Positions 821 through 24,791 of a DNA stretch of 64,000 nt are shown here, in pieces; position 1 is the first letter of the stretch, and every line of letters begins with the position of its first letter. This DNA comes from Escherichia phage vB_EcoM_G2248: the sequence record MK327932.1. One strand, 5' to 3'. The notes under the pieces were generated by a model, which was given only the letters and a program-made list of their open reading frames with translations, was not told where the DNA came from and made no database searches. The translations under genes were made by a program, and so were the position numbers.

Positions 821-1324
821 TCAAATAATTTTCACTGGAATACTATTAACAATCTTGTATTGTACTTGATTGTCGGACCCACGCCACGGTTTTTTCGTTG
901 GCATGTCTTTAATATACCGACCATCGATGAACATGTCAACTGATTCTACAATTTTTCTTTGCTCATCATTCAATTGGTCAAGGGTATAACCGGACCATAG
1001 CCAAATATCTTTATTTGGCATCCATGATTTTACTTCATCGATGATCCGCTGTACACCCTTTAAATTGCGTTTATACAGTGGATCGCCACCTAAGAATGTT
1101 AGCCCCTGAATAAAATCAGGTCTAAGCAGATCCAGAATCAATCCCATTGTATCATCGGTGAATGGTTCCCCGTTCTTAGGATTGAGTATGCTAGCATTAA
1201 AGCAACCATCACATGCGTGTGAACATCCGGTAACGTAAAGGGAGACTCTCACTCCCTCACCGTTAACCATATCACAATCTTTAATATCGGCATAGCGTAG
1301 TTTGCCGTATGTATCAGAACTCAT
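821..1324 (-). CDS. nrdG: anaerobic ribonucleotide reductase activating protein (radical SAM)
   Basis: Cys-rich motifs CSHACDGC and overall resemblance to T4 NrdG; sits downstream of nrdD; track start TTG moved to ATG at 1324. Confidence 0.85.
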   Translation of the reverse strand: MSSDTYGKLRYADIKDCDMVNGEGVRVSLYVTGCSHACDGCFNASILNPKNGEPFTDDTMGLILDLLRPDFIQGLTFLGGDPLYKRNLKGVQRIIDEVKSWMPNKDIWLWSGYTLDQLNDEQRKIVESVDMFIDGRYIKDMPTKKPWRGSDNQVQYKIVNSIPVKII

Positions 1325-1466
1325 ATTCAATTACCCCGAACTCGTTTACAATCTGCGCTTTATAGTAACCACCGCGAGATGCCAATAGATAAGCTGGGCT
1401 TAGGTATTCGTATTCACGGATTTCTACTTGTGCGTTTTCAGTTTCCCAAATCAGTAAAGTCCACAT
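1314..1466 (-). CDS. small hypothetical protein (50 aa)
   Basis: Track ORF 1314..1541 trimmed: a promoter/stem-loop cassette lies inside its 5' part; ATG at 1466 follows the conserved RBS GGAGAATCAAAT. Confidence 0.4.
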   Translation of the reverse strand: MWTLLIWETENAQVEIREYEYLSPAYLLASRGGYYKAQIVNEFGVIEYEF

Positions 1467-2086: not shown

Positions 2087-2626
2087 TCAAAGGTCGCGAT
2101 ATAGTACATTATGAAAATGAGAACTTGCATTACCAATATTGTAGATAATAAATTCTTCATCCGGCGCTTGCGCTACAAATTGAGTATGAGCAACCGCCAC
2201 AACCTTAAAAATACGATCCGTGATCTTGTGTTTAATTTCTGCCCCTACTTCCATAGGAACATATTCATTTGTTTCTGTTTCAGTCGCAAAACAGCCATCT
2301 TCTTCATAAGCACGAATAAATCGGTCGCAATCAGTACGCTTAACAAATTCAAGAGTATATAATTCTCGTGAATTGTCGGTATAGACCAATACAGAATTAT
2401 TATGATAGCGAATCACATACAGGTTATTATCATCGTCAATTACGCAAAAGCTACGGATTCCTTCGCCTTGACTCCAGCAGATATTAACCACCGTTCCTCT
2501 AATAAAAAAACTTTCCTTTAAATTAAAACTAGCCAATGTGCTAGCGTGCATTTTAACAACAACACCATCACCAATTTCCAGTTTACGAAGTTTAACTTCT
2601 TTGCTCAGTACACAAAACATCATCAT
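2087..2626 (-). CDS. hypothetical protein
   Basis: ORF with RBS GAGAGGA before ATG at 2626. Confidence 0.5.
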   Translation of the reverse strand: MMMFCVLSKEVKLRKLEIGDGVVVKMHASTLASFNLKESFFIRGTVVNICWSQGEGIRSFCVIDDDNNLYVIRYHNNSVLVYTDNSRELYTLEFVKRTDCDRFIRAYEEDGCFATETETNEYVPMEVGAEIKHKITDRIFKVVAVAHTQFVAQAPDEEFIIYNIGNASSHFHNVLYRDL

Positions 2627-2655
2627 GTTGTCCTCTCGTTGTTTTCGATGTGAGC

Positions 2656-2683
2656 ATTATACATTAGCTAATCATGTTGTCAA
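2656..2683 (-). promoter_or_regulatory. sigma70-like early promoter (TTGACA, 16-nt spacer, TATAAT)
   Basis: Reverse complement reads gTTGACAacatgattagctaatgTATAATg. Confidence 0.55.
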
Positions 2684-2690
2684 CACCCCA

Positions 2691-2720
2691 AAACGAAAAA
2701 GCCGACCCTTTCGGATCGGC
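2691..2720 (-). terminator. rho-independent terminator downstream of nrdD
   Basis: Hairpin GCCGACCCTTTCGGATCGGC followed by a T-run on the minus strand. Confidence 0.6.
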
Positions 2721-2726
2721 TAAAAA

Positions 2727-4589
2727 TTACATGTGCTTAACGCGGTTTACCATCTCGGAGTGTTTCCCGTGGTTGAATGGACGCAGATCAACAGATCCAA
2801 GATATCCACTAACGCGACGGATAACATTCATCTTTTCCAGATTGTCATTGCCGCAATCAGGACAAACAAAACCAGACTCGGTCGCTCTCATTTCCTTAGT
2901 AGATCCGCATACATGACATACATCAGAAGGAGTATTAACACCGAAGTAGTGCAATTTATCCATTGCATAGTCTACTACAGTTTCAAGACCTTTCAGGTTG
3001 TTTTTCATGTCTGGGAACTCAACATAAGAGATCATGCCACCGGACGCCAGCCAGTGATAATCTTTCTCAAAGTCGATTTTCTCAAATGGAGTGACTTTCC
3101 GGTCTACGTCAAGGTGGAATGAGTTGGTGTACCAGTCTTTATCGGTAGCACCCTTAACAATACCAAATTGCTCTCGGTCCAGTCGATTAAATCGATAGCA
3201 AAGGCTCTCGGCTGGCGTACCGTAAAGACTAAACCCAAGTCCGGTTTCATCCTTCCATTTTTCAGTATAATGACGCAAGATCTTAAGAATATGTTTACCG
3301 TATCGCTGCGCATCTTCCGAATCAAACGGATGAACACCAAACAGGACGCTCAATACCTCATGTAAACCAATATATCCAAGAGAGATACTAGCGCGACCAT
3401 CTTTCAGAACTTCCAAAATTTCATCGTTTTGATGAATACGGAAAAATGCACCTTCTGTATACAGTACAGGAGCAACATTGGCTTTAGCCCCTTTTAAAGC
3501 GTCTACGCGACTCATGAGCGCATCAAAGCAAATAGGCATACGATTAGCTAGCTCTTGTTCGAATAGCTCAATTCTGCGCATTACAGACGCTTTACCAGCA
3601 CGACGCGCGGCAATAAGGGCAATACGCGGAAGATTTAGAGTCACAACACCTAAGTTATTACGTCCGTCTAATACTTCTTCGCCTTTCTCATTATGCCACA
3701 CACCCAGGAAGCTACGACAACCCATCGGGCTAACCGGAACACTAGATCCAGTGATACTACGGTTATTCTTCGCAGAGATATAATCAGGGTAAAGACGCTT
3801 ACTAGAACATTCCAATGCAAGTTGCTTAATGTCGTAGTTCGGATCTTCCGGTTTAAGGTTTAATCCTTCTTCTAAGAACATCACCAGCTTAGGAAACACC
3901 GGAGTTATACCGTCTTTACCTAAACCTTTAGTTCGAACTTTCAGGATCGCTTTCTGAATCAGTTTTTCTTCCCAGCTAGTACCCATACCAAAGGTTAAAG
4001 TCACAAAAGGCGTTTGACCGTTGGTGGAGAACAAAGTGTTGATTTCATATTCCAACGCTTGATACCCGTCTAGCGTTTCTTTTTCTGTCTTCTCTTGTGC
4101 ATAGAGAGTATCAGCTTTGATTCCGTAGGTTTCGGCATCAGCAAGGTGTTTATGATATGTTTTCTCAACGTATGGCGCTAAAACCTGATCGATGTTTGCA
4201 ATTGTGGTCCCGCCATATTGATGACTTGCCACCTGTGCGATAATTTGAGCGGTTACAGCACAAGCAACGCCGATCGATTTCGGACTTTCGATTTGTGCGC
4301 TACCCAATTTAAAACCATTCTCTAACATGTCTTTGAGATTAACAAGACAGCAGTTAGTAAACGGCATAGCGGGTGCATAATCCATATCATGATAATGAAT
4401 ATCACCATCTACATGCGCTTTATAGATGTGCTCAGGTAACACGGTTTTAGCAATCTGTTTAGACACAGCACCAGCAATCAGATCTCGACGTGTCGGGAAT
4501 GTTCGCGCGTCTTTGTTCGCGTTCTCTTTGCTTACTTCGTTTTCTTTACCCGTTGCGATCTCTGTAATGTCTTTGATTAGTTTTTCCAT
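2727..4589 (-). CDS. nrdD: anaerobic ribonucleoside-triphosphate reductase (glycyl radical enzyme)
   Basis: 620 aa; C-terminal zinc site CPDCG and glycyl radical motif RVSGYLG; single uninterrupted ORF. Confidence 0.9.
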   Translation of the reverse strand: MEKLIKDITEIATGKENEVSKENANKDARTFPTRRDLIAGAVSKQIAKTVLPEHIYKAHVDGDIHYHDMDYAPAMPFTNCCLVNLKDMLENGFKLGSAQIESPKSIGVACAVTAQIIAQVASHQYGGTTIANIDQVLAPYVEKTYHKHLADAETYGIKADTLYAQEKTEKETLDGYQALEYEINTLFSTNGQTPFVTLTFGMGTSWEEKLIQKAILKVRTKGLGKDGITPVFPKLVMFLEEGLNLKPEDPNYDIKQLALECSSKRLYPDYISAKNNRSITGSSVPVSPMGCRSFLGVWHNEKGEEVLDGRNNLGVVTLNLPRIALIAARRAGKASVMRRIELFEQELANRMPICFDALMSRVDALKGAKANVAPVLYTEGAFFRIHQNDEILEVLKDGRASISLGYIGLHEVLSVLFGVHPFDSEDAQRYGKHILKILRHYTEKWKDETGLGFSLYGTPAESLCYRFNRLDREQFGIVKGATDKDWYTNSFHLDVDRKVTPFEKIDFEKDYHWLASGGMISYVEFPDMKNNLKGLETVVDYAMDKLHYFGVNTPSDVCHVCGSTKEMRATESGFVCPDCGNDNLEKMNVIRRVSGYLGSVDLRPFNHGKHSEMVNRVKHM

Positions 4590-4602
4590 TGTATCACCTA
4601 TG

Positions 4603-4625
4603 AAAAAGCGGGATTTTCTCCCGCT
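4603..4625 (-). terminator. hairpin/terminator between the upstream gene and nrdD
   Basis: AGCGGGAGAAAATCCCGCT on the transcribed strand followed by a T-run. Confidence 0.5.
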
Positions 4626-4634
4626 CGTTGATAG

Positions 4635-5129
4635 TTATTTTACCAGTTCTGCTAATTCTTTTTCTTTAGCTTCTAGTTCAGCTTTAAGCTGTTTAATCTC
4701 TTGTCGCTTCTTATTAGCGGCTTCTTGCTTACTATTTCGGATAACCTGATCTAGATACAACTCCCAATCCTGAATATTTTTGATAATGTAACCGTCAACA
4801 TTAATTGGTCGGAGATTCAGTACAGCTTCCAGTTTAGTTGCAAAAACTTTAATTGCTGGTGTGAAGTATTCATATTCGTTATCTTCAAACCAATAACCTA
4901 GACTTGCATTCTCAATACGAAGATGAAGTTTAAGATCAAGGTCTTTATCATCGGTATATAGGTCTTTTACACACCCAATAGAATTAACAACAACTTTAAA
5001 ACGAATTTTATCTACACCACCAAACACATCTTCAAGAATATCAGCAATTGAGCTATTAGCGCAAGATTGGTCGCTGAATGCGTCAAGGTTTTCTTTAGTT
5101 ACAGTATACCAAACATCTTGTACCCACAT
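4635..5129 (-). CDS. hypothetical protein with C-terminal coiled coil
   Basis: ATG at 5129 preceded by the conserved RBS module GAGGATTATATTATG. Confidence 0.55.
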   Translation of the reverse strand: MWVQDVWYTVTKENLDAFSDQSCANSSIADILEDVFGGVDKIRFKVVVNSIGCVKDLYTDDKDLDLKLHLRIENASLGYWFEDNEYEYFTPAIKVFATKLEAVLNLRPINVDGYIIKNIQDWELYLDQVIRNSKQEAANKKRQEIKQLKAELEAKEKELAELVK

Positions 5130-5152
5130 AATATAATCCTCTCGTTGTTAAG

Positions 5153-5187
5153 TGGGAGTATTATAGCATACTCCCTTCGCATGTCAA
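5153..5187 (-). promoter_or_regulatory. PeSL-like early promoter with palindrome GGGAGTATGCTATAATACTCCC
   Basis: TTGACA at 5187..5182, TATAAT at 5165..5160; the palindrome spans the -10. Confidence 0.55.
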
Positions 5188-6362
5188 GCACTAACTTTTT
5201 TCTTTACTGCTTTCACCTTCTGGCGAATTGCTCGAATCTCTTCGATCTCTTTTTCAGTCTCTTTAACAATTTCTTTGCGATTCTGAATATCTGTATCTAG
5301 ATTATCATCAAGTTTAGGCAGCATGTCAATCAAGAACTTTTTAAAGTCTTTCAGGTTTCGGATAACAGCACCTTCACCCATTACCGCCACGCCTACACCA
5401 TCCGGCAGGTCGCCAAACAGTTTAACCAGTTCAGACAGATGATCATGATCTTCTAGTGCTTCTTCCGGTTCAGATGGCAGTTCCACAAAGTAATAACGTT
5501 CATCATTGCTGATCAGGTGATACCAGCAAAGCCCAAAAGATTTAGGAGTATATTCTACACCACCAACTTCAACTGCGTCAACACTTCCGAAAGAATCTAC
5601 TTTAGTTACCTTAAATCCATGTTCCAGCGTTTTAATAATTTCAATAACATGACTGGATACGGTTTCAGTATTAAACCAATGAGGCAAATTATGTGGATTT
5701 GGCTTGTATCGTTCGCCTACTTTAAATCTCTGACCACGCTCTTGCATACGGACATATTCAACTCGCGTGATTTCCGCGAAGTATTCAAATTCGCCACCGT
5801 CAAACACAGAAGCCCATTGATCACAAAAACGATCTGCCTTAACAGTTTCACCTTTCGCGGTGATCATGGTAGCTGATCCGTGCAATTCTTCTTCAACTAA
5901 AAAGCCATATTCGACAAAATCAACAAGTTTCATAGCTTCTTTGTGATCTGGATCATGCTCTCCCCAGAATCGCTTAAATTCTTGCAAACCTTCTGGGGTA
6001 AACGAATAACATTTACCTTTTTCAAAGTAAGTCGGCATTGCATCCTCTTTCTTGTTCATCGCTTCGTATGCCTCTTTTGAGATGCGTTTAAAGTATTTAC
6101 GCTCATTGTGCATAATCATAGTAGCCCAATAATCAACAATATCATTAGCGGAATAAACTACATCTCCAGCTTCAATAGTAATAACATGACCGTGGTCATC
6201 TTTTTCTAATACTTTAAAGCCCTTTTCTACGATTTCAGCAACACGAATATGACCACGGCGCGAAGCATCGGTCAGAATAATTGAATAGCGAGAAAAGTCT
6301 AGAAACTCATCTTTACCGCCTTCACGGAATGCATAGCAATGACCTTCAAAGAATTTAGCCAT
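5184..6362 (-). CDS. hypothetical protein with repeated ~65-aa domain (member of tandem paralog family)
   Basis: 392 aa; internal repeats share GF(K/L)V and NERKYFKRI motifs with the two following genes. Confidence 0.6.
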   Translation of the reverse strand: MAKFFEGHCYAFREGGKDEFLDFSRYSIILTDASRRGHIRVAEIVEKGFKVLEKDDHGHVITIEAGDVVYSANDIVDYWATMIMHNERKYFKRISKEAYEAMNKKEDAMPTYFEKGKCYSFTPEGLQEFKRFWGEHDPDHKEAMKLVDFVEYGFLVEEELHGSATMITAKGETVKADRFCDQWASVFDGGEFEYFAEITRVEYVRMQERGQRFKVGERYKPNPHNLPHWFNTETVSSHVIEIIKTLEHGFKVTKVDSFGSVDAVEVGGVEYTPKSFGLCWYHLISNDERYYFVELPSEPEEALEDHDHLSELVKLFGDLPDGVGVAVMGEGAVIRNLKDFKKFLIDMLPKLDDNLDTDIQNRKEIVKETEKEIEEIRAIRQKVKAVKKKVSA

Positions 6363-6999: not shown

Positions 7000-7272
7000 T
7001 CATTTCACTAATTGAACAGCACGGAACAGAATGCGGTCACACGGAAGCAGCATAAATTCCCAACGCGGATCAAAGTCTTTAGCGGTATATGTTTTCCCAT
7101 CAACCGAGATTTCACTTACATAACCAATAGGTGACACTTTAAGAACAGTAAATCCATTCTTGATGACTTCGTAGGTATCTTTCAATCCTTCGTAGTCATC
7201 CTCTAGGAAGTCTTTACGTGCTTGCTCAGATTTAAAAACATAGGCCACACCGGATTTAAACATCTTACGCAT
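7000..7272 (-). CDS. hypothetical protein, single copy of the paralog domain
   Basis: 90 aa with GFTVLKVSPIGYV motif; RBS AAGGAGAATCAACA before ATG 7272. Confidence 0.5.
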   Translation of the reverse strand: MRKMFKSGVAYVFKSEQARKDFLEDDYEGLKDTYEVIKNGFTVLKVSPIGYVSEISVDGKTYTAKDFDPRWEFMLLPCDRILFRAVQLVK

Positions 7273-7296
7273 TGTTGATTCTCCTTCTTGATTAGA

Positions 7297-7332
7297 TGGG
7301 AGTATTTTACTACTCCCATTTCATGTTGTCAA
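7297..7332 (-). promoter_or_regulatory. PeSL-like early promoter with palindrome GGGAGTAGTAAAATACTCCC
   Basis: TTGACA at 7332..7327, -10 TAAAAT, palindrome spans the -10. Confidence 0.5.
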
Positions 7333-7335
7333 CCA

Positions 7336-7809
7336 CTATCTTAATCTTTGTATGAATTGTTTCTTATACTTCTTCGTGATCTCTTCTCTTGTATCCGCGT
7401 CACAGTAATCGAAACCTTCTGCGTCCATAATAGCAACCATCTCCGCTCGTGTCAAGCGTGAAAATCGTTTTACTTTATCAACAGCATATTGAGGATGTAA
7501 ATGATTGTTGGTGTAGTCTCCTTTGATGTAATTAACATAGTTTGTAGCCCAAACAACGAAATCAGCACCTAAAGCACCAACACCAAACCGTTTAAAGTCT
7601 CCGGTCAACGATCCTTCTAGGCGGTTGCAACACGAATGAAGCAATCCCCTTACGCGGCCTTGCCCTTTCCCATCTAGATCGTGGTCGTGGTCAAGATGGT
7701 TTTTGCTCATATCCTCAAAAAGTGGCAATTGACAAAGGGGGCAAATGCCCCCCTGTTTTTCGAATAGTTCTTGTTTGTACTCTTTAGCACTCTTAGCAGT
7801 CAGTAACAT
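7336..7809 (-). CDS. 49: endonuclease VII (Holliday junction resolvase)
   Basis: Motifs HLDHDHD, GxVRGLL and CxxC match T4 gp49; track TTG start moved to ATG 7809 (MLLTAK...). Confidence 0.9.
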   Translation of the reverse strand: MLLTAKSAKEYKQELFEKQGGICPLCQLPLFEDMSKNHLDHDHDLDGKGQGRVRGLLHSCCNRLEGSLTGDFKRFGVGALGADFVVWATNYVNYIKGDYTNNHLHPQYAVDKVKRFSRLTRAEMVAIMDAEGFDYCDADTREEITKKYKKQFIQRLR

Positions 7810-7833
7810 AAATTCACCCTCCAAAGAAGGTAT

Positions 7834-8115
7834 TTAACCATTAATCTTGTTTTTGACTACAAAGGATCGGAACTCATCAAAACCACCGATATAATCACCA
7901 TCATAGAAAATCTGCGGCATGGTGGCAATAACTTCTACCCCTGCGCGATCCTGAATATCGGCAATGATAGAATCAATCTTTACCGGACGACCGTTTTCGT
8001 CCACACCATCATTAACCGGAATGTAGATGTAAGGGATCTTACGCGCTTCACAAAGGCGCTTTGCATTCTGGCAATACTTACAGTTGTAACCTTCAAAACC
8101 AAAAATTTCTACCAT
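7834..8115 (-). CDS. nrdC: glutaredoxin/thioredoxin-like protein
   Basis: CKYCQNAKRL active site and MPQIFYDGDYIGGFDE resemble T4 NrdC; ATG at 8115. Confidence 0.8.
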   Translation of the reverse strand: MVEIFGFEGYNCKYCQNAKRLCEARKIPYIYIPVNDGVDENGRPVKIDSIIADIQDRAGVEVIATMPQIFYDGDYIGGFDEFRSFVVKNKING

Positions 8116-8123
8116 GTTATACC

Positions 8124-8936
8124 TCAATCTACGTTAGTTACATAAACTTCTTGCGTATCAGAAGACTTACCACCTGAACGATCTAGGCAATAGGTCTTAT
8201 TCAACAGGACGCAGTTTAAATCATTCCGCTTGATAAAGTCAAGGAGATGATCATTTACCTTTCCCTTATGATGCGTGACATTACTGATACCAAACTGAAA
8301 ACCACGCGCCATAATCGATTCTACCCACTGATAGAATTTAATCTCTTCCTCGTCACTCCAGAACTTATTATATTCCGCAGAAGTGATAAGGTACGGCGGG
8401 TCCAAATAAACGAAATCACCTGGCAAGATCTCGATCTCGTCATAGCGACCAGACGTAAAACTGATTCGACCGTCTTTGTTTTCTTCCTTAAAATTCAGGA
8501 CACGCTCTACCGCGTTTTCGTTAAAAGTCCGGCGACCAAAATTAGCATTAAATTCTCCCTTCCTGTTATGGCGGTTAATGTTGCTAAAACTGTGCTGAAT
8601 CAGAACAAACAGAGATAGCGGATCTGGATTCTCATTATACTTCTTGCGGAATGCCATATAAGAATCTTTATCATCACGAGACAAACCATTCTCGGCAATA
8701 ATCAGCTTGATCGTAGAAACCGGATCAGGACACTCGTCAATCGCTTTGTACGCGTCAATTAAGCGGTGATCATAGTCATTAGCCAGAACACCCCCTTCGA
8801 CGTACAGAGACACGCTCAAGCCACCACAAAAGGCATCAACAAAGCGGTTATAGTGCTTAGGGAAATACTTACTAACACTTGGCAATAACTTTTCCTTATT
8901 GCCAGTATAGGGAATTAAACCTAATGCTTTCTTCAT
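8124..8936 (-). CDS. dam: DNA adenine methyltransferase (Dam family)
   Basis: NRFVDAFCGGLSVSL (motif I), DFVYLDPPY (motif IV), YNKFWSDEEE; close match to T4 Dam. Confidence 0.85.
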   Translation of the reverse strand: MKKALGLIPYTGNKEKLLPSVSKYFPKHYNRFVDAFCGGLSVSLYVEGGVLANDYDHRLIDAYKAIDECPDPVSTIKLIIAENGLSRDDKDSYMAFRKKYNENPDPLSLFVLIQHSFSNINRHNRKGEFNANFGRRTFNENAVERVLNFKEENKDGRISFTSGRYDEIEILPGDFVYLDPPYLITSAEYNKFWSDEEEIKFYQWVESIMARGFQFGISNVTHHKGKVNDHLLDFIKRNDLNCVLLNKTYCLDRSGGKSSDTQEVYVTNVD

Positions 8937-9367
8937 TATCCCTTCCTCAAATAAGTTCGCTCAATCTCTACCAGTTCGAAAAATTCATCCCAATCACACG
9001 GAAAATTGCAGTTTCCAAAATGGTCTTCATTGTAAAGCTCTTTACCGGATGGCAACTTAATATCTGTTACAGTATACCAACCGCAACAATCACAATCACC
9101 CTCAACAACAGAAACTTTCGTCGGAATTTGCATCATTGCCAGATAGGTCGGCACGTCAGACTGTTCAAAGATCATGTAACCTTCATTGTCAAACGAAACA
9201 AAATTATCATCGCCCAAAAAAGGGATATAGTGGTCATAATCGGTTACAGGTTGACCGTGCAATTCCCATTCTACAATTTTAACATTACCACTAAACTTGA
9301 TACCCATCATATCAACCATAAAATGAGTATCGTCAATGTAAATCTTACTAGGAGTTGGATAAACCAT
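8936..9367 (-). CDS. hypothetical protein
   Basis: ATG 9367 behind conserved RBS GAGGATTATATAATG. Confidence 0.5.
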   Translation of the reverse strand: MVYPTPSKIYIDDTHFMVDMMGIKFSGNVKIVEWELHGQPVTDYDHYIPFLGDDNFVSFDNEGYMIFEQSDVPTYLAMMQIPTKVSVVEGDCDCCGWYTVTDIKLPSGKELYNEDHFGNCNFPCDWDEFFELVEIERTYLRKG

Positions 9368-9377
9368 TATATAATCC

Positions 9378-9671
9378 TCATATCTCAGAGAATAGAATCT
9401 CTGTTAGCTTCACTGACTGCTCTCTGAATGTTAGCGTATACTCGAAAGGAAAGTCAACACCTAATTTCAGAAGAGAATAGCCTACCGCCTCTTTATGCTT
9501 ATCTGTTAGGGCAATCCTAACCAATTCCAGTTGAATCTCTTTAGGCGGTGAATGGATAGTAACACGGGTATCATGCAATGTCCAGTCACCATTACGAATC
9601 AAGATTAACGGTTTATCGTCATTGAAGATCACCGACCCCTTTCCGGTCGGTGAGTGTTTTATACTAATCAT
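9378..9671 (-). CDS. hypothetical protein
   Basis: Track ORF; start moved from TTG to ATG 9671. Confidence 0.45.
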   Translation of the reverse strand: MISIKHSPTGKGSVIFNDDKPLILIRNGDWTLHDTRVTIHSPPKEIQLELVRIALTDKHKEAVGYSLLKLGVDFPFEYTLTFREQSVKLTEILFSEI

Positions 9672-9885
9672 CAAATTCTAAGAAATATTCTGGAACGATA
9701 TAACCGTTAAAGTCATTGCACTTATAAAAATGTGGTGCATTTAATGCTGGATGAGCGTTTGTAAAGAGTTTACCCTCTAGAAACAGAATGTAATTAATAG
9801 GTCTAATACCTACAGAATCAGGGTCTAAACCTTTTTCTTTCAGTTCAGCCAGCGTTAAAACTCGTCCAGATCGTAACTTAGCCAT
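9664..9885 (-). CDS. hypothetical protein
   Basis: ATG 9885 with RBS AGGGGT. Confidence 0.45.
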   Translation of the reverse strand: MAKLRSGRVLTLAELKEKGLDPDSVGIRPINYILFLEGKLFTNAHPALNAPHFYKCNDFNGYIVPEYFLEFDD

Positions 9886-10171
9886 GATTTACCCCTAATT
9901 CATCAAGATTATGTCGCAGCATTTCAGAGTATTTTTCTACTTCCTTGATCTTAGTGTGGATCTCCACGATCTCATCTTCACTATCAGATAGTTTAATGGC
10001 AATTGCGAGCGTGCTTTTACCAGCTTTCATAGTCTCTTTCCGTTCAACCAATAGATCCGCGTGTTTCAATAGCAATTCTTCACGTCGAACATAAGCGACG
10101 GTCAAAGCCTCATCAGCAATTTCTAAAGCGTTTTCAGCGACACCAACAACCATTTTACGAGTAGACAGCAT
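9878..10171 (-). CDS. hypothetical protein
   Basis: ATG 10171 with RBS GAGGTGA. Confidence 0.45.
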   Translation of the reverse strand: MLSTRKMVVGVAENALEIADEALTVAYVRREELLLKHADLLVERKETMKAGKSTLAIAIKLSDSEDEIVEIHTKIKEVEKYSEMLRHNLDELGVNHG

Positions 10172-10185
10172 AAATTCACCTCACA

Positions 10186-10494
10186 TTATTTCACGTTAAC
10201 GCCGTCATCAATCCAGCCGACGCTATTTGGTTTAACAGTTTTACCATAGGATGCATACTTAATCAAGCATGGTTTAACATCATTATCAAATCTTCCTAAA
10301 CGTACTCCCAAATCAGGAATATCCATGTATGCGGCTTTATATCCCCATGTGCCATATTCAGAATCAATCTCAACCGGACGGCCTTTAAAAGCATACACTA
10401 CACCGTGACGGTCAACGATAACATAGCAATAGCCAGCCGGAAGATACACAGTTTCGCCGTAAACTTTAACTGGAGTAGCAGAAGAGATAAACAT
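10186..10494 (-). CDS. hypothetical protein
   Basis: ATG 10494 behind conserved RBS module and a PeSL-like promoter. Confidence 0.5.
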   Translation of the reverse strand: MFISSATPVKVYGETVYLPAGYCYVIVDRHGVVYAFKGRPVEIDSEYGTWGYKAAYMDIPDLGVRLGRFDNDVKPCLIKYASYGKTVKPNSVGWIDDGVNVK

Positions 10495-10520
10495 AATATA
10501 ATCCTCACATCGTTCATTTG

Positions 10521-10557
10521 ATGCGGTTATTATAGGATAACCGCATTTTCATGTCAA
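10521..10557 (-). promoter_or_regulatory. PeSL-like early promoter with palindrome GCGGTTATCCTATAATAACCGC
   Basis: TTGACA at 10557..10552; the palindrome contains the -10 TATAAT. Confidence 0.5.
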
Positions 10558-10563
10558 CAGTTT

Positions 10564-10872
10564 TTAAAAATCTTCTTCCGGTTTATATCGACCGTCATCA
10601 ACTGGTTTTGGACTGAATCCGGTATGTTTGCGCGGCTTCGCTTCCGGTTTCCCCGCAATCATCAAACCAAAACATTTCATCCCCTTATAACACATAACAA
10701 TATCAACCACGGTCCACGTTATAGGCCATACGATTGCAGCAATACAAAATGCTCCTGTATCGACCTCTTTGGTGTCCTTATCGAATCTGGCATACAAGCA
10801 GAATACTAGATACGAGATCATTGCACCAGTAAGCCAGATATAAAGCACATTAACAATATCTTGTGTTGTCAC
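10564..10872 (-). CDS. small membrane protein (2 predicted TM helices)
   Basis: Hydrophobic segments; probable GTG start at 10872 five nt after GGAGGA, right after the upstream stop. Confidence 0.4.
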   Translation of the reverse strand: MTTQDIVNVLYIWLTGAMISYLVFCLYARFDKDTKEVDTGAFCIAAIVWPITWTVVDIVMCYKGMKCFGLMIAGKPEAKPRKHTGFSPKPVDDGRYKPEEDF

Positions 10873-10882
10873 GTTATCCTCC

Positions 10883-11161
10883 TTACATGTCTTGCAGTGC
10901 ATAAAAGCATTTTTCTTCATAGTCATAGAAAATGTCAAAGTATGCTTTTTCTACATACTCACCATTGATCCAAGCGGCAGTAACAATCAGAGTGGTCCAG
11001 TTCGATCCACTCTCAACGGTAAAGGTTTTAATACCCAGCTTCGCTGCCAAGTCGAACGCAAACCGGACGCAACCACGGCAGGAAGTGATATTTGAAGTTT
11101 TGATTTTAAAGCCACCGCGAGTTTTGGTAATTTCTACTTTAGCGAAAGACAGGTTGCTCAT
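10883..11161 (-). CDS. hypothetical protein
   Basis: ATG 11161 behind RBS AAGGAGAATCAAA and a PeSL-like promoter. Confidence 0.5.
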   Translation of the reverse strand: MSNLSFAKVEITKTRGGFKIKTSNITSCRGCVRFAFDLAAKLGIKTFTVESGSNWTTLIVTAAWINGEYVEKAYFDIFYDYEEKCFYALQDM

Positions 11162-11180
11162 TTTGATTCTCCTTAAGAAA

Positions 11181-11232
11181 GTGTGTTTCGTTTTGATGTG
11201 TGTAGTATAGGGGATACGTGATCCCCTGTCAA
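11181..11232 (-). promoter_or_regulatory. PeSL-like early promoter (TTGACA, palindromic spacer GGGGATCACGTATCCCC, TATACT) plus conserved leader
   Basis: Reverse complement shows hexamers 17 nt apart with the palindrome in the spacer. Confidence 0.5.
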
Positions 11233-11240
11233 CAACTTTT

Positions 11241-11570
11241 TTATGATTTTAGTGAATTAACCACTACATCAAAATGATGTACAGAGTACACCTTATTAAA
11301 CACATATTCATCGTGTTTAGGAATAGCCCCTAATCGCTCTATTTCGCTCGCTGACACGATAAACCGTTTATCCGGTGCATTTACCTTATATGCTTCAACA
11401 ACGCACGGAAAACGCGTTTTAGCGAGTTCGGGATAGTTTTCTGACTCCATCAGGACAATGAATACCCTGTTACATTGATTGTAGAATCCTGTTTTTGATT
11501 TCATCAAGTTTTCTTCTATGTTCAAGTCGTGCAATCTTCTTTTCATGATTTCGTTGGTTCTTGTCTTCAC
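11241..11570 (-). CDS. hypothetical protein (start uncertain)
   Basis: Track ORF with GTG start; internal ATGs at 11546 and 11504 are alternatives. Confidence 0.35.
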   Translation of the reverse strand: MKTRTNEIMKRRLHDLNIEENLMKSKTGFYNQCNRVFIVLMESENYPELAKTRFPCVVEAYKVNAPDKRFIVSASEIERLGAIPKHDEYVFNKVYSVHHFDVVVNSLKS

Positions 11571-11808
11571 AGTTTACCCACTCAACAAGATCTTTACCTA
11601 ACTCGAAAGCCCATTCTCGGTCTTGCTTTACGTTTTGTAGGTATGGACTTTCTGACACTCTACGAAGTGATGTTGTCGTAACAAGAATGATCCCAGGAAT
11701 GGTCGGATGTTCCTTTCCATATACAATCGGACGGGAATCACTTTCGACACCTTGTAAGAAGGTGTATCCTGAATCATTCAGCAACAAATACATTTTCGGT
11801 TCGTTCAT
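11470..11808 (-). CDS. hypothetical protein
   Basis: ATG 11808 with RBS GAGGAA; TGATG overlap with upstream stop. Confidence 0.45.
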   Translation of the reverse strand: MNEPKMYLLLNDSGYTFLQGVESDSRPIVYGKEHPTIPGIILVTTTSLRRVSESPYLQNVKQDREWAFELGKDLVEWVNCEDKNQRNHEKKIARLEHRRKLDEIKNRILQSM

Positions 11809-12065
11809 CACAGATTCCTCAACCAGTTATTAAAGCGAGCAAAGCATGATTCTTTTCGTGCTTTTTCTGCTTTACGGGCAAATCTATCCAAGAAACACCA
11901 TTCATAATCATCATTGTAAATTCCCTCAAAGGAAGCTCCAGCTTTGCGTAATTCTTTGGTTGTTACCAAGAAACTATCATAGAAGGGAGTTCCTCTAACA
12001 ATGACCGGAAGTTTAACACCTTTCAAGAAAGAATAATCGGCATCATTAATAATTTCAATTTTCAT
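11808..12065 (-). CDS. hypothetical protein
   Basis: Track ORF, ATG start. Confidence 0.45.
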   Translation of the reverse strand: MKIEIINDADYSFLKGVKLPVIVRGTPFYDSFLVTTKELRKAGASFEGIYNDDYEWCFLDRFARKAEKARKESCFARFNNWLRNL

Positions 12066-18915: not shown

Positions 18916-19107
18916 TAGATGACTCCAATATAATCGACATTTACATTTAGGGCAATGCGGTTCTTTAATATAATACCCGTCTGTCTTTGGAACACTAACA
19001 GGAGCGGTTTTTATATTGTATTCAGTGAAACAACGAAAACAAGTTACGTTTTCTACAGACTGACGTTTCACCCAATCACCGGAATAGAGATCATTTTTAT
19101 TTGTCAT
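18913..19107 (-). CDS. small zinc-ribbon protein
   Basis: CFRC...CPKCKC; ATG 19107 with RBS GGTGG. Confidence 0.4.
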   Translation of the reverse strand: MTNKNDLYSGDWVKRQSVENVTCFRCFTEYNIKTAPVSVPKTDGYYIKEPHCPKCKCRLYWSHL

Positions 19108-19552
19108 ATTCCACCACCACAATGTTAATGTCTGGAGTGGCAATATTAATGATTTCTTCTACACATTCCCACTCAAGGCCACCGATACCGCAACCGATTT
19201 TAGGAATATAGAAAGGCTGTATAGCACCTTCAAAAACATCATTGAGAGCCTCAAATCCTTTCAGGATAGCACCATATTCAGCATTTGGACCCGGTCGGAA
19301 TTGGGTATAGAGATTAACCCCGCACCAATTATAACCATTAACTTGATGCGTCCAGACACTAAACCCACCCAGCTTTTCGACCTTACCGCGAGAAGTTTGC
19401 TTGTCAATCTCTAACGCTTGCGGGAACTCTTTCGCGATCTTCGCAGCAATACCAGCGCCCATAGTATGAAAACAATTACAACCATGAATTAAATGACCTT
19501 TTCCTTGTTTAAACAGGGCGATGAGATCGCCCTTTACAGTATCAATAATCAT
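19097..19552 (-). CDS. macro domain (ADP-ribose binding/processing) protein
   Basis: HGCNCFHTMGAGIAAKIAKEFP resembles the macro-domain N-terminal motif; RBS GAGAGG. Confidence 0.55.
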   Translation of the reverse strand: MIIDTVKGDLIALFKQGKGHLIHGCNCFHTMGAGIAAKIAKEFPQALEIDKQTSRGKVEKLGGFSVWTHQVNGYNWCGVNLYTQFRPGPNAEYGAILKGFEALNDVFEGAIQPFYIPKIGCGIGGLEWECVEEIINIATPDINIVVVEYDK

Positions 19553-19567: not shown

Positions 19568-19927
19568 TTAGTCACGGGAAGACAACCCAGCCATAAAACG
19601 GCTTAACAGTGTGTCGCGATAAGCAAAGCATAATTGCTTATCAGGGGCAGTATCACACAGGTTGCGTTTTGTTTTAGCAAAGCTGGCAATACTCAGATCC
19701 CATGCTCGATTTTTTCGTTTTTCGTCTCGACCTTGTTTGTATGCTTCATCAAGTTCGAGCGCGATAAAATCACTACACATGTTATCATCATCACAGAAAG
19801 TTTTAATGATCTTTTTGTTGATCTCAAATCCTTTGTATTCGAACTTTGGATAATGGCGCTCATTACTAGCAAGCGCACCAGCCGATAACATCATAGCAAT
19901 CATAGCAATTATTGTCAACTTTTTCAT
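19568..19927 (-). CDS. secreted/periplasmic hypothetical protein
   Basis: N-terminal signal peptide MKKLTIIAMIAMMLSAGALA; four Cys; RBS GAGGAA. Confidence 0.5.
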   Translation of the reverse strand: MKKLTIIAMIAMMLSAGALASNERHYPKFEYKGFEINKKIIKTFCDDDNMCSDFIALELDEAYKQGRDEKRKNRAWDLSIASFAKTKRNLCDTAPDKQLCFAYRDTLLSRFMAGLSSRD

Positions 19928-19934: not shown

Positions 19935-20525
19935 TCAATAGCGTTTAGTCTTAAGAATGCCTTTACTCTTTAGATGGTTGGCCTTTTTTAGTACGTCATC
20001 AGCATAACCTAATCCGGCTTTATAGTTCCATCCAGCATTGTAAGAAGCTAGCGCGAGTCGGATATTACCGTTTCGAACATCCAGCCAGTATGCTAACTCA
20101 TCCATCGCGTAGAATGCAGAAACCTCGCGATTCATGATAAAGTTGATAGTCTGGCGATCACTCATTTTAACACCGCGCTTTGCATTTTTCGCTTTCACCG
20201 TTTTAAGGTAATTTTGAAATAATCCATAAGCATGATGATTTTTCTTTGGTGCTAAGTTTGCACCCGCGCTTGATTCTTGCCATGCGATACCCGCCAGGAT
20301 GTGGCCTAAACCCTTTCCGTCATAGCGAATATTCGGATGGTCATTTTTCAACTTACCGCTTTTCTCGAATTGTTCGCCATATTGATAGGCGAAATGTAAA
20401 TTATCTAGTTGGTGTGCTGTAAAGTTGTCTATCGGCGCTTTTTTGATCGGTGCGCTAGTCGATGCGTGTGTAGCACCAACGGCTAGTGACAGACTCAATA
20501 CTATCGCTTTTAGAACTTTTAACAT
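19935..20525 (-). CDS. secreted lytic transglycosylase (SLT domain)
   Basis: Signal peptide; SLT motifs GIAWQESS and AYGLFQ. Confidence 0.65.
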   Translation of the reverse strand: MLKVLKAIVLSLSLAVGATHASTSAPIKKAPIDNFTAHQLDNLHFAYQYGEQFEKSGKLKNDHPNIRYDGKGLGHILAGIAWQESSAGANLAPKKNHHAYGLFQNYLKTVKAKNAKRGVKMSDRQTINFIMNREVSAFYAMDELAYWLDVRNGNIRLALASYNAGWNYKAGLGYADDVLKKANHLKSKGILKTKRY

Positions 20526-20589: not shown

Positions 20590-20612
20590 CATTATTTTTA
20601 ACCAATTTTCCA

Positions 20613-21035
20613 TTATTGGTCTACCTTCAAAACAACCGCCGACATTTTACCCGCCAGTCGTTTTGGATTCTCTATAATCATTCGACAGCATAGACCGTGA
20701 TATGGCTTACCCTCTTCGATTAGATCTACTGTCATCCCGATCCACATGTTGCCGTCAGTAATTTCTAATCGATTAGGTCGGTCTTCCATTTTCAGGAAGT
20801 CGAAGATCTCCGGCAAACGAGTTTCTATCTTATTGAATAATTCCATTGTCTTATGTTCATCGATATGACGATCGGTTAGACGGTCGATCATATGCGGACT
20901 AAAGCGAATGAAAATATACTCACCGTAACCATCATTCAAGCACTTTTCTTTGATCTGCGCATTGGTTTTGCGCATTTCGGTTTCGAAGAATCTACGCAGC
21001 TTACTACGGCGAACATGTACGTTAATTGTTTCCAT
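20613..21035 (-). CDS. regB: RegB-like site-specific endoribonuclease
   Basis: RRSKLRRFFETEMRK, RLEITDGNMWIGMTV and CRMIIENPKRLAGKMSAVVLK match T4 RegB (from memory); ATG 21035. Confidence 0.75.
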   Translation of the reverse strand: METINVHVRRSKLRRFFETEMRKTNAQIKEKCLNDGYGEYIFIRFSPHMIDRLTDRHIDEHKTMELFNKIETRLPEIFDFLKMEDRPNRLEITDGNMWIGMTVDLIEEGKPYHGLCCRMIIENPKRLAGKMSAVVLKVDQ

Positions 21036-21039
21036 TTTA

Positions 21040-21375
21040 TTATCCTTTCTTAAACAAATTGCGAATCCAGTATACAAACGGGATTTCTTTAAACTTGAAT
21101 TTCTCTATAGTTAATTCTTTAGTAGCAAGATGAATACCATAAGCATCATGTGTCACGATATGCCATTTTCTATAGTCCAAATGTGAACAACCGTCTGGAT
21201 CTAGGTTAATAAGAGTTTCTCGCTCACTAGGATTATTTTTCCACAATTTTGTAATAGGATCGCACATAATTCGACCTAGCGTACCATGAATAATCTCACA
21301 ACGGTAAAGTTTTCCAGCAGTGAGATAGGCGCACCCGTCATAGTCGGTATAAACAAACACTTCTTTAATACTCAT
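21040..21375 (-). CDS. hypothetical protein (GCSHL paralog family)
   Basis: Start at ATG 21375 with RBS AAGGAG; motif DGCSHLDYRKWHIV. Confidence 0.45.
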   Translation of the reverse strand: MSIKEVFVYTDYDGCAYLTAGKLYRCEIIHGTLGRIMCDPITKLWKNNPSERETLINLDPDGCSHLDYRKWHIVTHDAYGIHLATKELTIEKFKFKEIPFVYWIRNLFKKG

Positions 21376-21390
21376 TTTAATACTCCTTTG

Positions 21391-21432
21391 TTTCGATGGG
21401 GGTATATTACTACCCCCGTTTTGTTGTGTCAA
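21391..21432 (-). promoter_or_regulatory. PeSL-like early promoter with palindrome GGGGGTAGTAATATACCCCC
   Basis: TTGACA at 21432..21427; the palindrome spans the -10. Confidence 0.5.
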
Positions 21433-21678
21433 CTACTTTTTCAAGATTTTTTTAATTGCGTTCCAAAGACCTTTATTCTCAGGTTGTTTTGGTTCTTCGA
21501 TCAGTGTCCATGTTCGACCGTCTAAGTGTGCACAATTTTTAAGACAAATAAAAATCTGGTGTCCCTTATCATCACGGATATAACCACTATTCGCAAATCT
21601 TTCATGTGGTGTATATTCATACAGTGTATTTGGTGTAATATACTTGCGGTTACTATAAGGTGTCATCACATACATCAT
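21433..21678 (-). CDS. hypothetical protein (GCSHL paralog family)
   Basis: Motif NCAHLDGRTWTLI; start placed at ATG 21678. Confidence 0.4.
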   Translation of the reverse strand: MMYVMTPYSNRKYITPNTLYEYTPHERFANSGYIRDDKGHQIFICLKNCAHLDGRTWTLIEEPKQPENKGLWNAIKKILKK

Positions 21679-21869
21679 GGTACTAACTCCCAACGATCAC
21701 CGCGAAGATGAGAACATCCACCATCAAGAAGTATCGTAATACGATAACCTATATCATCTTTGATGTAACCGATTGTCGGTGGATTTTCGTCGTCTCGTGC
21801 CGGGGTAAAATCATACATCTTTCCGGGCGTAATATCTTGTCCTTTATTACTATTGGTATAAACTTGCAT
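21675..21869 (-). CDS. hypothetical protein (GCSHL paralog family)
   Basis: Motif GGCSHLRGDRWELV; RBS AGGAGA before ATG 21869. Confidence 0.45.
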   Translation of the reverse strand: MQVYTNSNKGQDITPGKMYDFTPARDDENPPTIGYIKDDIGYRITILLDGGCSHLRGDRWELVP

Positions 21870-21890
21870 TTTCTTAATCTCCTATATTAA

Positions 21891-22589
21891 CTAACCACGG
21901 GTATAGTGTTCCAGAACAACGGTCAGATGAATATATTCTAATAGATCTTTCCAAAAGTCAACATCTGGTTCTTCCGGCATACCGTTTTTCTTTGCCTCTT
22001 CACGCGCGAGTTTAACACGCTCGTAGAGATCTTTCAATTCTTCCCGCACATTATCAAAGGTTCTTTCTCCTAACTTACACGCTAAGATAGAAGAACGTCG
22101 CGCGAGCGGGAATTGTAGATCACCAGTTTGATAGATTTCAAGTAGCTGATAACCAACACGCAGAGCATGAGAAAGATCTTTCCAGTTACTGAAATACTTT
22201 TCAGATTTGGCTACCTGTTTCTTGAGATAACCAGACAAACCCCACATACCAACATGATAGAATTTATCGCGATGTGTTCGGATGTATTCCCATTCTCTGG
22301 AGGATTCGATCAACATGTTACTAGGCGCGTGCACCATATCAATAGCGCCGATATCACCTTTACATGCCAGATTGATAAACCGTTTTAGACTGAACATATT
22401 AACGTCAATATCGTCTTTGGTGTTCTTGATACCTTGACCGCTAGTGCTTTGGTCATAGTGTTCTTTCATCGATCCTAAGATAATTTCTTTCGCAGTCGGA
22501 ACAAAGATACCACGATAATCTTTATCGGAATTTTCAGTATCAAGGCCGTATAAGTGAGATCCGAAGACCATTTTAACCATTGTATGCAT
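21891..22589 (-). CDS. Pol-beta-superfamily nucleotidyltransferase
   Basis: N-terminal signature FGSHLYGLDTENSDKDYRG (GS-x9-13-D-x-D); RBS GAGGG. Confidence 0.55.
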   Translation of the reverse strand: MHTMVKMVFGSHLYGLDTENSDKDYRGIFVPTAKEIILGSMKEHYDQSTSGQGIKNTKDDIDVNMFSLKRFINLACKGDIGAIDMVHAPSNMLIESSREWEYIRTHRDKFYHVGMWGLSGYLKKQVAKSEKYFSNWKDLSHALRVGYQLLEIYQTGDLQFPLARRSSILACKLGERTFDNVREELKDLYERVKLAREEAKKNGMPEEPDVDFWKDLLEYIHLTVVLEHYTRG

Positions 22590-22632
22590 AATTAAACCCT
22601 CAGTTGATTAAGAGATTGCATCATATCATCAT

Positions 22633-22665
22633 AAAACGAAAAAGCCAACCCTTTTCGGATTGGCT
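22633..22665 (-). terminator. rho-independent terminator downstream of the GrcA-like gene
   Basis: Hairpin AGCCAATCCGAAAAGGGTTGGCT followed by a T-run on the minus strand. Confidence 0.6.
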
Positions 22666-22675
22666 TGATGAAAAA

Positions 22676-23092
22676 TTAGAGAGATTCGGTAAAGGTACGA
22701 GCGATAACATCACGTTGCTGGTCTGGAGTCAGACTATTGAAGCGCACTGCGTAACCAGAAACGCGAATTGTAAGCTGCGGGTACTTCTCAGGATTAGCAA
22801 CAGCATCCAGAAGAAGGTCGCGACTCATCACATTGATATTCGCGTGCTGACCACCTTCGACAACCGGAGCACCATTATCTACAATCACCGGACGGAAGCT
22901 AGTTGTGTGCAGTGCCAGCGAATCGACGTCTTCTTCGGTGATCACATGGTCTTCTGCGAAAGTTTTACTAACAATTACTTTAGCGCCGATCAGTGCTTTC
23001 GGTTCGGATACCAAAATCATAGGCGCGAAGTGTCCACCGATAATAGTACCTTTATGCTCACCTTTCATGATTTGAATTGCTTTAAATTCCAT
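22676..23092 (-). CDS. autonomous glycyl radical cofactor (GrcA/YfiD-like)
   Basis: C-terminal glycyl radical motif RVSGYAVRF in a 138-aa protein; T4 is known to encode a YfiD-like protein; RBS GAGGTGA. Confidence 0.7.
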
Positions 23093-23226
23093 AATTCACC
23101 TCTTATAGATCAGGACGTTCGTCATTAATTTTACCAACCAAAACACCATAGAGTTTATCAGGTTGGATTTTACGATTCTTTTTAATTGTAGCACGAAATC
23201 GACGAGCTACGCTATCTTTATTTTCA

Positions 23227-23718
23227 TTAGTTGATACCTAAGCCAATGAAAATAGGTTGGTCTTCTACATTACCCATCCCAACACTAAGTCGATTCAATT
23301 CTAAAAACTGCAATACGCTGTCAGTAAATCCGCGCATGGTAGTATCTAGGATAAAAATTGTTTTGTCAAGACTACGACCTCGCCATGTGATCGGATTCAG
23401 GAAAGTTCGGATCGACGTACAATCTACATCTGAAATATTTACATTTTCACCACGACCGCGATCTCGGATCGTTTTGGCATGTTCCCGCGTTGTTGAAACG
23501 ATAAAGACACTATAGCCTTTTCGCGTATAATGGTCATATAACTTGATTGTAGCGTCTGTATGCCCTGTCTGACGGCCTAAATTGATTGAGACAATGGAAT
23601 CTAGGTCATCAGCAAAATTGCGTCGCTTACGGCGTTCCATGATGCCATTTACAGCAGATACACACGCAGCATAAATCAAATCTTTACTTTCTAATTCTAA
23701 ATCAATGTCAATATTCAT
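23227..23718 (-). CDS. hypothetical protein
   Basis: Start placed at ATG 23718 behind RBS GGAGAC; the track ORF extends to 23766. Confidence 0.45.
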   Translation of the reverse strand: MNIDIDLELESKDLIYAACVSAVNGIMERRKRRNFADDLDSIVSINLGRQTGHTDATIKLYDHYTRKGYSVFIVSTTREHAKTIRDRGRGENVNISDVDCTSIRTFLNPITWRGRSLDKTIFILDTTMRGFTDSVLQFLELNRLSVGMGNVEDQPIFIGLGIN

Positions 23719-23780
23719 GGTAAAGTCTCCAGTGAACGGGGAGAGATCCTTAGATTGTCTCCCCATTGATGGTTAATATT

Positions 23781-24356
23781 TTATTTTGGATCTGGGAAAT
23801 TCAATAGAGCATATTCTCCATAAAATTTCCTAGCTGCATTATCATAAGCGATTGCAGCTTCGATTTCTGTGTCATATTGTCCAAGAACATGTCTTTGTAG
23901 GTTGACCATTATACTAGCTCTCCATTTCTTACGCAAATCCTTCCTGTTACACTTACTAACACCCTTATACACACTAGAAAACTTTTTAGACTTCTTCTTT
24001 CTATTATGTTGATTTTGCGCGTCGGTTGCCTCCCTAAGATTTGGAGGATTGTTATTAGCAGGATTACCGTCAATATGATCAATTAATCTAACTTGCGTCC
24101 CATGTTCTAGAAACCAAACAACCCTATGCACGAATAGATGAACTCTAGGAAGACCGTCATCTCTACTATGCCAAAATCTAAGATGACCATCTTTATTTGT
24201 TCTGACTTTAACTAAATCGCCGTGTTTATATCTACTCCCTAATGGTCGTCCTTTGATAGCTTTACTATCGACTCTATAATATAAGATACCCTCTATATGA
24301 GCATATCTAAGTTTTATCTCGTTTTGTAGGGATTCATCCCAATATTTAAAAGCCAT
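23781..24356 (-). CDS. HNH homing endonuclease with C-terminal AP2 DNA-binding domain
   Basis: HNH motif LIDHIDGNPANNNPPNLREATDAQNQHN; AP2-like SSVYKGVS...WRASI...YDTEIEAAIAYDNAARKFYG. Confidence 0.75.
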   Translation of the reverse strand: MAFKYWDESLQNEIKLRYAHIEGILYYRVDSKAIKGRPLGSRYKHGDLVKVRTNKDGHLRFWHSRDDGLPRVHLFVHRVVWFLEHGTQVRLIDHIDGNPANNNPPNLREATDAQNQHNRKKKSKKFSSVYKGVSKCNRKDLRKKWRASIMVNLQRHVLGQYDTEIEAAIAYDNAARKFYGEYALLNFPDPK

Positions 24357-24401
24357 TTTATAATCCTCACAAAGCCAGCGATTAAGCTGGCTTGATTTTA
24401 G

Positions 24402-24791
24402 TTATACCGGGTCTGGATATACCTTTTTATCGAGTTCCATATGCGGTCCGTCTTTAAAAGTAACCCAATCAACACCGCAGATAACAGGAACACCCAATTC
24501 TCGACCAGCTTGTTTAAATGCATCCGCGATCATGCGGTAGTATTTCATGTTCCATGTATCCTTATCTTTCGGATACGCTACAACGTCAACCGCGAAACCG
24601 TGAAGATGACGAGATTTCATAGTCTTAGATTTACCTTCCGCAACATATTTCTTTTGCGTTTCTAGACTACGTACACCTTCCGTAATACCAAAATCGACCG
24701 GAGTCAGTTCTAACGCACGATGAACGACTTTTACCAGGTCAGGATGCACACCAACAAGCCGATCTTTGCTTCTTTGAGATAATTTAAACAT
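24402..24791 (-). CDS. peptidase M15 family peptidoglycan endopeptidase (candidate endolysin)
   Basis: Zn-binding motifs SRHLHGFAVDV and DGPHMELD typical of L-alanyl-D-glutamate peptidases; no signal peptide. Confidence 0.65.
   Translation of the reverse strand: MFKLSQRSKDRLVGVHPDLVKVVHRALELTPVDFGITEGVRSLETQKKYVAEGKSKTMKSRHLHGFAVDVVAYPKDKDTWNMKYYRMIADAFKQAGRELGVPVICGVDWVTFKDGPHMELDKKVYPDPV

Follow-up and report, generated by a model that had tools for sequence, protein, structure and literature searches.

A Krischvirus ortholog of T4 vs.6 encodes a stand-alone glycyl radical protein, a probable spare part for host pyruvate formate-lyase

We analyzed a 64,000-nucleotide stretch of Escherichia phage vB_EcoM_G2248 (MK327932.1), referred to as the window, with a focus on one short gene of its minus strand (Table 1). 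Between 22000 and 24400, the DNA is 97% identical to the Krischvirus genomes RB49, KMB43, G5211, and JSE; the window belongs to a Krischvirus, an RB49/JSE-like relative of T4 in the Straboviridae. An earlier note, based on the letters alone, had placed a 138-aa open reading frame (ORF) at 22676–23092, and the ORF list contains it with the same ends and length; its strand had gone unstated. The gene lies within a conserved block (tk-vs-regB-vs.6-vs.8-endolysin) common to JSE, RB14, T4, and Pm5461, and the window ORFs from 19097 to 24791 follow the same order. The orthologous coding sequence of JSE is annotated as vs.6, and T4 vs.6 bears the RefSeq name "autonomous glycyl radical cofactor GrcA" (NP_049730.1). 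The homolog that the note had attributed to T4 is this gene, vs.6, whose product is known as Y06I, and the two are syntenic orthologs. A 174-aa ORF on the plus strand (22604..23128) was taken as a shadow of vs.6 because all homology evidence backs the minus-strand frame. At the position of T4 gene e, the endolysin of the window is of the Peptidase_M15_4 (L-alanyl-D-glutamate peptidase) type and not a T4-type lysozyme.

Table 1. Coordinates of genes and sequence features in the window, with the basis of each assignment.
Feature	Position	Strand	Basis or remark
nrdG, radical-SAM activase of NrdD	821..1330	-	Pfam Fer4_12; TIGR02491, 166 bits (cut-off 126)
nrdD, class III anaerobic ribonucleotide reductase, 620 aa, intact	2727..4589	-	Pfam NRDD, 586 bits; NCBIfam NF006732 equivalog, 880 bits
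tk.4	19097..19552		Block gene
vs	19568..19927		Block gene
vs.1	19935..20525		Block gene
regB	about 20613..21077		Block gene; small ORFs between regB and nrdC.11
nrdC.11 nucleotidyltransferase, downstream neighbor of vs.6	21891..22589	-	Pfam RlaP; PHROG 388; JSE annotation
Intrinsic terminator, AAGCCAATCC-GAAAA-GGGTTGGCTT then TTTCGTTTTA	22632..22666	-	Starts 10 nt past the vs.6 stop; terminators annotated at the same place in related records
vs.6 ortholog, 138-aa autonomous glycyl radical cofactor (GrcA/Y06I type)	22676..23092, stop codon included	-	ATG ORF; Pfam Gly_radical; PHROG 1209; JSE annotation; T4 synteny
C-terminal glycyl radical domain, residues 77–138	22679..22864	-	Identities to GrcA, PflB, and TdcE; Foldseek
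RVSGYAVRF motif, residues 110–118	22739..22765	-	Translation
N-terminal half, residues 1–76	22865..23092	-	Alignments; homolog counts; AlphaFold2 model
Shine-Dalgarno sequence AAGAGGTG, 4 nt upstream of the vs.6 ATG	23097..23104	-	Read from the sequence
vs.8 homolog, upstream neighbor of vs.6	23227..23766	-	PHROG 1488; JSE annotation
HNH_3 + AP2-domain homing endonuclease between vs.8 and endolysin	23781..24356	-	
Endolysin	24402..24791	-	Peptidase_M15_4

Downstream of vs.6, the strong terminator consists of a 10-bp stem (22666..22642) followed by a T tract. A promoter scan returned sigma-70-like matches within and upstream of vs.6, but their total over the region, 14, compares with 9.3 in shuffled sequences (sd 3.0) and is thus only ~1.5 sd higher, and no T4 late-type TATAAATA was read in the 134-nt spacer upstream of vs.6. 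The gene was assigned no promoter, and its co-transcription with vs.8 is assumed. The G+C content of vs.6 (46%) and of its C-terminal module (49%) is raised relative to the window (40%), which would fit a module that ultimately came from the host, or else strong constraint at the codon level. The spacer itself corresponds to a 126-nt ORF between vs.8 and vs.6 in JSE, JK32, and phiS, which is not open in the window (23096..23227, minus strand): the alignment contains a 1-nt indel, an in-frame TAG stands at codon 7 from the ATG at 23227, and a 32-aa ORF with a GTG start is left. The 126-nt ORF is thus either not a real gene or has been inactivated in G2248.

Pfam Gly_radical matched residues 78–119 of Vs.6 (58 bits, E 1.5e-15), and among proteins of solved structure the best sequence match was E. 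coli GrcA (6owr, E 5e-30), followed by pyruvate formate-lyase (PFL; 1h16, E 4e-26). BLASTP against E. coli PflB aligned the C-terminal 61 residues with 47 identities (77%, E 1e-32). Over the 62 residues of the C-terminal domain, 51 are identical to GrcA, 49 to T4 Vs.6, 47 to PflB, and 45 to TdcE. The Pfam, 6owr, and PflB matches, all well above what chance would give, bear out the initial description of a GrcA/YfiD-like, stand-alone glycyl radical protein. Its glycyl radical motif, RVSGYAVRF, is present as had been claimed; the protein was loosely said to end in it, the motif standing 20 residues before the C-terminus. The glycine within it, Gly113 (codon 22754..22756, minus strand), aligns with GrcA G102 and with PflB G734 (mature numbering; residue 735 of the 760-aa PflB translation). 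The loss of this conserved glycine, which the earlier note had named as the observation that would speak against a GrcA relationship, was not seen. In a 77-sequence alignment, Gly113 and 22 further C-terminal positions were invariant, including H83, N85, N87, L94, A97, P101, Y104, L107, T108, R110, S112, Y114, A115, and R117; at eight positions of its C-terminal domain, however, Vs.6 has a residue found in none of the three E. coli PFL-family sequences.

Vs.6 has the makeup by which GrcA proteins are recognized (TIGR04365, IPR011140), in that it is small, stands alone, and over its C-terminal ~60 residues shows homology to the glycyl radical domain of PFL. GrcA (TIGR04365) was also its best NCBIfam match (E 4e-37), with a score that falls short of the equivalog cut-off (127.3 bits vs 170) and an alignment confined to residues 37–138. 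The shortfall arises because the N-terminal half of Vs.6 is phage-specific and carries an insertion. Given this diverged N-terminus, Vs.6 is placed in a phage subfamily, outside the bacterial equivalog. The phage family profile PHROG 1209, by comparison, is covered end to end (E 1e-48, residues 3–138 on profile positions 1–121 of 121). Homologs were detected by tblastn in 1580 of 50,697 phage records, comprising T4-like phages of Escherichia, Salmonella, Klebsiella, Aeromonas, and Proteus as well as shorter forms in T5-like phages.

The N-terminal half is only loosely homologous to GrcA, the HMMER alignment beginning at residue 37, and displays a phage-type signature (GxHKGTI ... AKVIVSKTF) that it has in common with T4 Vs.6 (KAxQIxxGxHKGTI, VSKTF). 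Among 120 database homologs, 49 carried GxHKGTI and 37 the bacterial LLNSFW, with no overlap between the two types. Relative to T4 Vs.6, the window protein has an insertion of ~12–17 residues after GTI (around residues 17–33). An AlphaFold2 model computed from the 77-sequence alignment (mean pLDDT 77.7) predicted four beta strands and a helix for the N-terminal half at moderate confidence (pLDDT 76–85), with the insertion poorly defined and of low confidence, and the expected helix, Gly-tipped hairpin, and helix for the C-terminal domain. The sole significant PDB match of the model in Foldseek was the NMR structure of YfiD (6owr); large glycyl radical enzymes superposed through their glycyl loops at 0.8–1.0 Å. 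For the N-terminal half, Foldseek gave no significant match, returning KOW and ribosomal hits only (probability at most 0.33, E at least 0.58).

With its T4 counterpart, Vs.6 shares the genomic block, the N-terminal signature, PHROG 1209, and the C-terminal domain (49/62). The Krischvirus protein is longer (138 aa vs 120 aa; overall identity about 55–61%), and its gene is followed by nrdC.11 where T4 has vs.5. E. coli GrcA/YfiD (P68066, PDB 6OWR) is likewise a small protein that stands alone, its C-terminal ~60 residues being a copy of the glycyl radical domain of PFL, with the radical glycine aligned. It differs in its N-terminus, described as disordered for YfiD (PMC13450708), whereas that of Vs.6 is of phage type and predicted to be partly folded; moreover, Vs.6 is virus-encoded and without the regulation of host grcA. 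The short GrcA2/GrcA3-like forms of T5-like phages (Demerecviridae) have the same C-terminal domain (61–69% identity by tblastn), but they align only to Vs.6 residues 54–138 or 65–138 and are located in the tRNA region instead of the vs block.

Compared with PflB and TdcE, Vs.6 lacks the ~700-residue barrel bearing the catalytic Cys418/Cys419 and therefore cannot be an enzyme on its own. Of the traits that define a pyruvate formate-lyase (a ten-stranded barrel and Cys418/Cys419), none was found in this cysteine-free protein, which matches the last 61 residues of PflB alone. Several GenBank records nevertheless name the 138-aa protein "pyruvate formate-lyase", and PHROG 1209 is labelled "unknown function" in PHROGs v4; other GenBank records already use "autonomous glycyl radical cofactor". 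The "pyruvate formate-lyase" labels are over-annotations, and together with the PHROG label they amount to annotation errors and gaps in view of the biochemistry published on the T4 member in 2001.

According to that work (Wagner et al. 2001, BBRC 285:456, as cited in PMC8683613 and PMC13450708), T4 Y06I receives a glycyl radical from PFL-activating enzyme and forms an active complex with oxygen-cleaved PFL in vitro. In the passages of PMC8683613 and PMC13450708 that cite it, no spare-part proteins other than YfiD and Y06I are counted as validated. Searches of the literature for later phage-specific work on Vs.6 or GrcA returned citations of Wagner 2001 only. The reading of vs.6 is already known, its family having been characterized on the T4 member and annotated in public records. 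Because the T4 case dates from 2001 and appears in many GenBank annotations, Krischvirus Vs.6 adds a member to the family and not a concept.

We consider it quite probable that Vs.6, the Krischvirus ortholog of T4 vs.6 (Y06I), is a stand-alone spare part of the GrcA/YfiD type that rescues oxygen-cleaved host PFL. The earlier note had left open whether the phage protein serves host PFL or the phage NrdD, a choice that is largely settled for PFL by the 77% identity to PflB over 61 residues, the restriction of the NrdD similarity to RVSGY, and the PFL rescue by T4 Y06I reported in the papers citing Wagner 2001. Alignments with YfiD and with the NrdD C-terminus had been proposed as the check; the former yielded the 51/62 identities to GrcA, and the latter the pentapeptide RVSGY only (E 1.7). 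The Y06I rescue, the PflB identity, the RVSGY-only match to NrdD, and the lack of cysteine all indicate that the target of Vs.6 would, with high probability, be host PFL.

The opposite assignment, in which Vs.6 would replace the glycyl loop of phage NrdD after oxygen cleavage at its glycine, draws on the RVSGY common to Vs.6 and the window NrdD, on the position of vs.6 beside nrdD and nrdG in Aeromonas phage Aeh1 and some jumbo phages, and on the published remark that other glycyl radical enzymes could conceivably have spare parts as well (PMC8683613). However, the BLASTP match to the window NrdD (E 1.7) contrasts with E 1e-32 for PflB. In NrdD, a CxxC...CxxC zinc ribbon (CHVC...CPDC; Pfam A2L_zn_ribbon) stands ahead of the loop, and Vs.6, with 0 cysteines, is consequently without such a ribbon. 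The NrdD loops also vary (RRVSGYLG, after the Cys4 zinc ribbon, in the window; RRVCGYLG in Aeh1), whereas Vs.6 keeps the PFL-type sequence, and the DNA of the T4 vs.6 module matches host grcA at 98% identity. We rejected an NrdD spare part on the RVSGY-only BLASTP match and the missing cysteines, and regard it as highly improbable.

Under the preferred reading of PFL rescue, host PflA (the radical-SAM PFL-activating enzyme) would remove a hydrogen from Gly113, the glycine of the RVSGY loop. The activated 15-kDa Vs.6 would then dock on host PFL whose C-terminus oxygen has cut at Gly734 and supply a new radical glycine, by which the conversion of pyruvate to acetyl-CoA and formate would be restored. 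We infer that Krischvirus Vs.6 acts as its T4 ortholog does, and the benefit to the phage would presumably lie in fermentative ATP and formate kept flowing in micro-oxic hosts. A decoy role, in which Vs.6 would titrate PFL-activating enzyme or bind PFL without restoring activity and thereby redirect host fermentation, has no specific point in its favor; Vs.6 retains every residue that does not vary among functional GrcA and PFL domains, Gly113 included, and the T4 ortholog restores activity as cited in PMC8683613, which makes a decoy very hard to credit. As to which host enzyme the module resembles, the divergent Krischvirus alleles showed no clear preference between TdcE and PflB, with 42–51 of 62 residues identical to each.

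The initial description had also set vs.6 alongside nrdD and nrdG. The window does contain both genes, and they share the strand of vs.6, but they are not adjacent to it, lying 18.1 and 21.3 kb away with dozens of ORFs in between. No gene-neighborhood link of vs.6 to nrdDG exists in the window, where the local context is the tk-vs-regB-vs.6-vs.8-endolysin block. The window nrdD is 100% identical to that of phage Cognac, and in JSE a homing endonuclease gene interrupts nrdD, dividing it into two parts. Other phages do cluster these genes. The order in Aeh1 is nrdD-nrdG-vs.6-nrdC-nrdH (2374..5660 of the retrieved locus), with the vs.6 start overlapping the nrdG stop. In a set of 80 IMG/VR loci, nrdD-vs.6-nrdG falls within 4 kb on three jumbo-phage contigs (345–357 kb), and one 235-kb contig has nrdD-nrdG-vs.6-nrdC (loci L016, L033, L039, and L057, around 7100..12000). 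T5-like phages with the short form also possess nrdD (e.g. OR845129.1).

These arrangements bear on how the radical is installed. In a variant of the same PFL rescue, phage NrdG would install the radical instead of, or besides, host PflA, making rescue independent of the host activase supply. The natural substrate loop of NrdG in G2248 is RRVSGY, with the same five residues as in Vs.6; the overlap of vs.6 with nrdG in Aeh1 and its location between nrdD and nrdG in jumbo phages point the same way, as does the phage-specific N-terminus, which replaces a YfiD region affecting radical installation (PMC13450708). Against this stand the activation of T4 Y06I by PFL-activating enzyme (as cited in PMC8683613), the glycine-flanking residues of Vs.6, which are identical to the substrate of PFL-activating enzyme and not to NrdD, and the 21 kb between nrdG and vs.6 in the window. 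Activation by NrdG is therefore unlikely in our assessment, and host PflA stays the expected activase of Vs.6.

Metabolically, PFL is the cell's formate source. Formate in turn is the reductant of most characterized class III ribonucleotide reductases, and a formate site has been suggested for T4 NrdD (PMC4493059). A plausible bridge between PFL rescue and phage NrdD would accordingly be formate, a link that gene order in other phages suggests, while cross-activation of Vs.6 by NrdG is the less likely bridge. A broader scheme, in which Vs.6 is part of a phage-run anaerobic dNTP chain (PFL kept alive under micro-oxic stress, formate supplied as the obligatory reductant, NrdD driven), with NrdG perhaps activating and the module serving as an exchangeable cassette matched to the host PFL and activase, is possible but doubtful. 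T4-like coliphages have a third glycyl-radical component in addition to NrdD and NrdG, one that would act on a host enzyme, and the combination of NrdD, NrdG, and Vs.6 fits replication in an oxygen-fluctuating gut.

The history of the glycyl radical module differs between T4 and the window. In T4 vs.6, the last 185 nt, from the IEGGQH codons to the stop (4558..4742 of the retrieved T4 locus), are identical to E. coli K-12 grcA at 181 positions (98%), with a sharp boundary at the IEGGQH codons and no similarity upstream. Given this match, the T4 module appears to be a recent acquisition from the host gene or the product of gene conversion by it. By contrast, window vs.6 is only 73–75% identical in DNA to grcA, pflB, or T4 vs.6, and its third codon positions agree with grcA at 28 of 62. 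Recent host capture was rejected for the window gene: the highest identity that blastn reached across 5426 E. coli genomes was 73%, and the match was confined to the 3' end of pflB. On these comparisons, window vs.6 is an older, independent lineage whose protein likeness has been maintained by selection.

A second pattern of divergence emerged among close relatives. Between the window and JSE, JK32, and phiS, DNA identity is 90–100% in vs.8, in the spacer, in the 5' half of vs.6, and in nrdC.11, but drops to 54–83% over the 3' ~250 nt of vs.6, in the 3' half of the gene (22676..22900). At the protein level, residues 1–76 are 86–99% identical among close relatives and residues 77–138 only 64–74%, even though the latter are the most conserved part of the Vs.6 family overall; all alleles keep the invariant residues. 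JSE, JK32, and phiS carry a NUMOD4-HNH homing endonuclease gene between vs.6 and nrdC.11, adjoining the diverged 3' stretch, and the window is without it. Such a pattern is what a free-standing homing endonuclease with a co-converted or cleavage-resistant flank usually leaves. The 3' divergence of vs.6 looks like such homing-endonuclease flank divergence or co-conversion, and the C-terminal module looks like a hot spot of recombination. In the doubtful broader scheme, the glycyl radical module would be overwritten time and again through gene conversion from host grcA, as in T4, or swapped along with a neighboring homing endonuclease, as in Krischviruses. On the other side of vs.8, the HNH_3 + AP2 gene of the window is covered by only 13 of 63 related phage records, and in the others listed the match stops at query position 1797 (about window position 23796); this gene is therefore an optional insertion.
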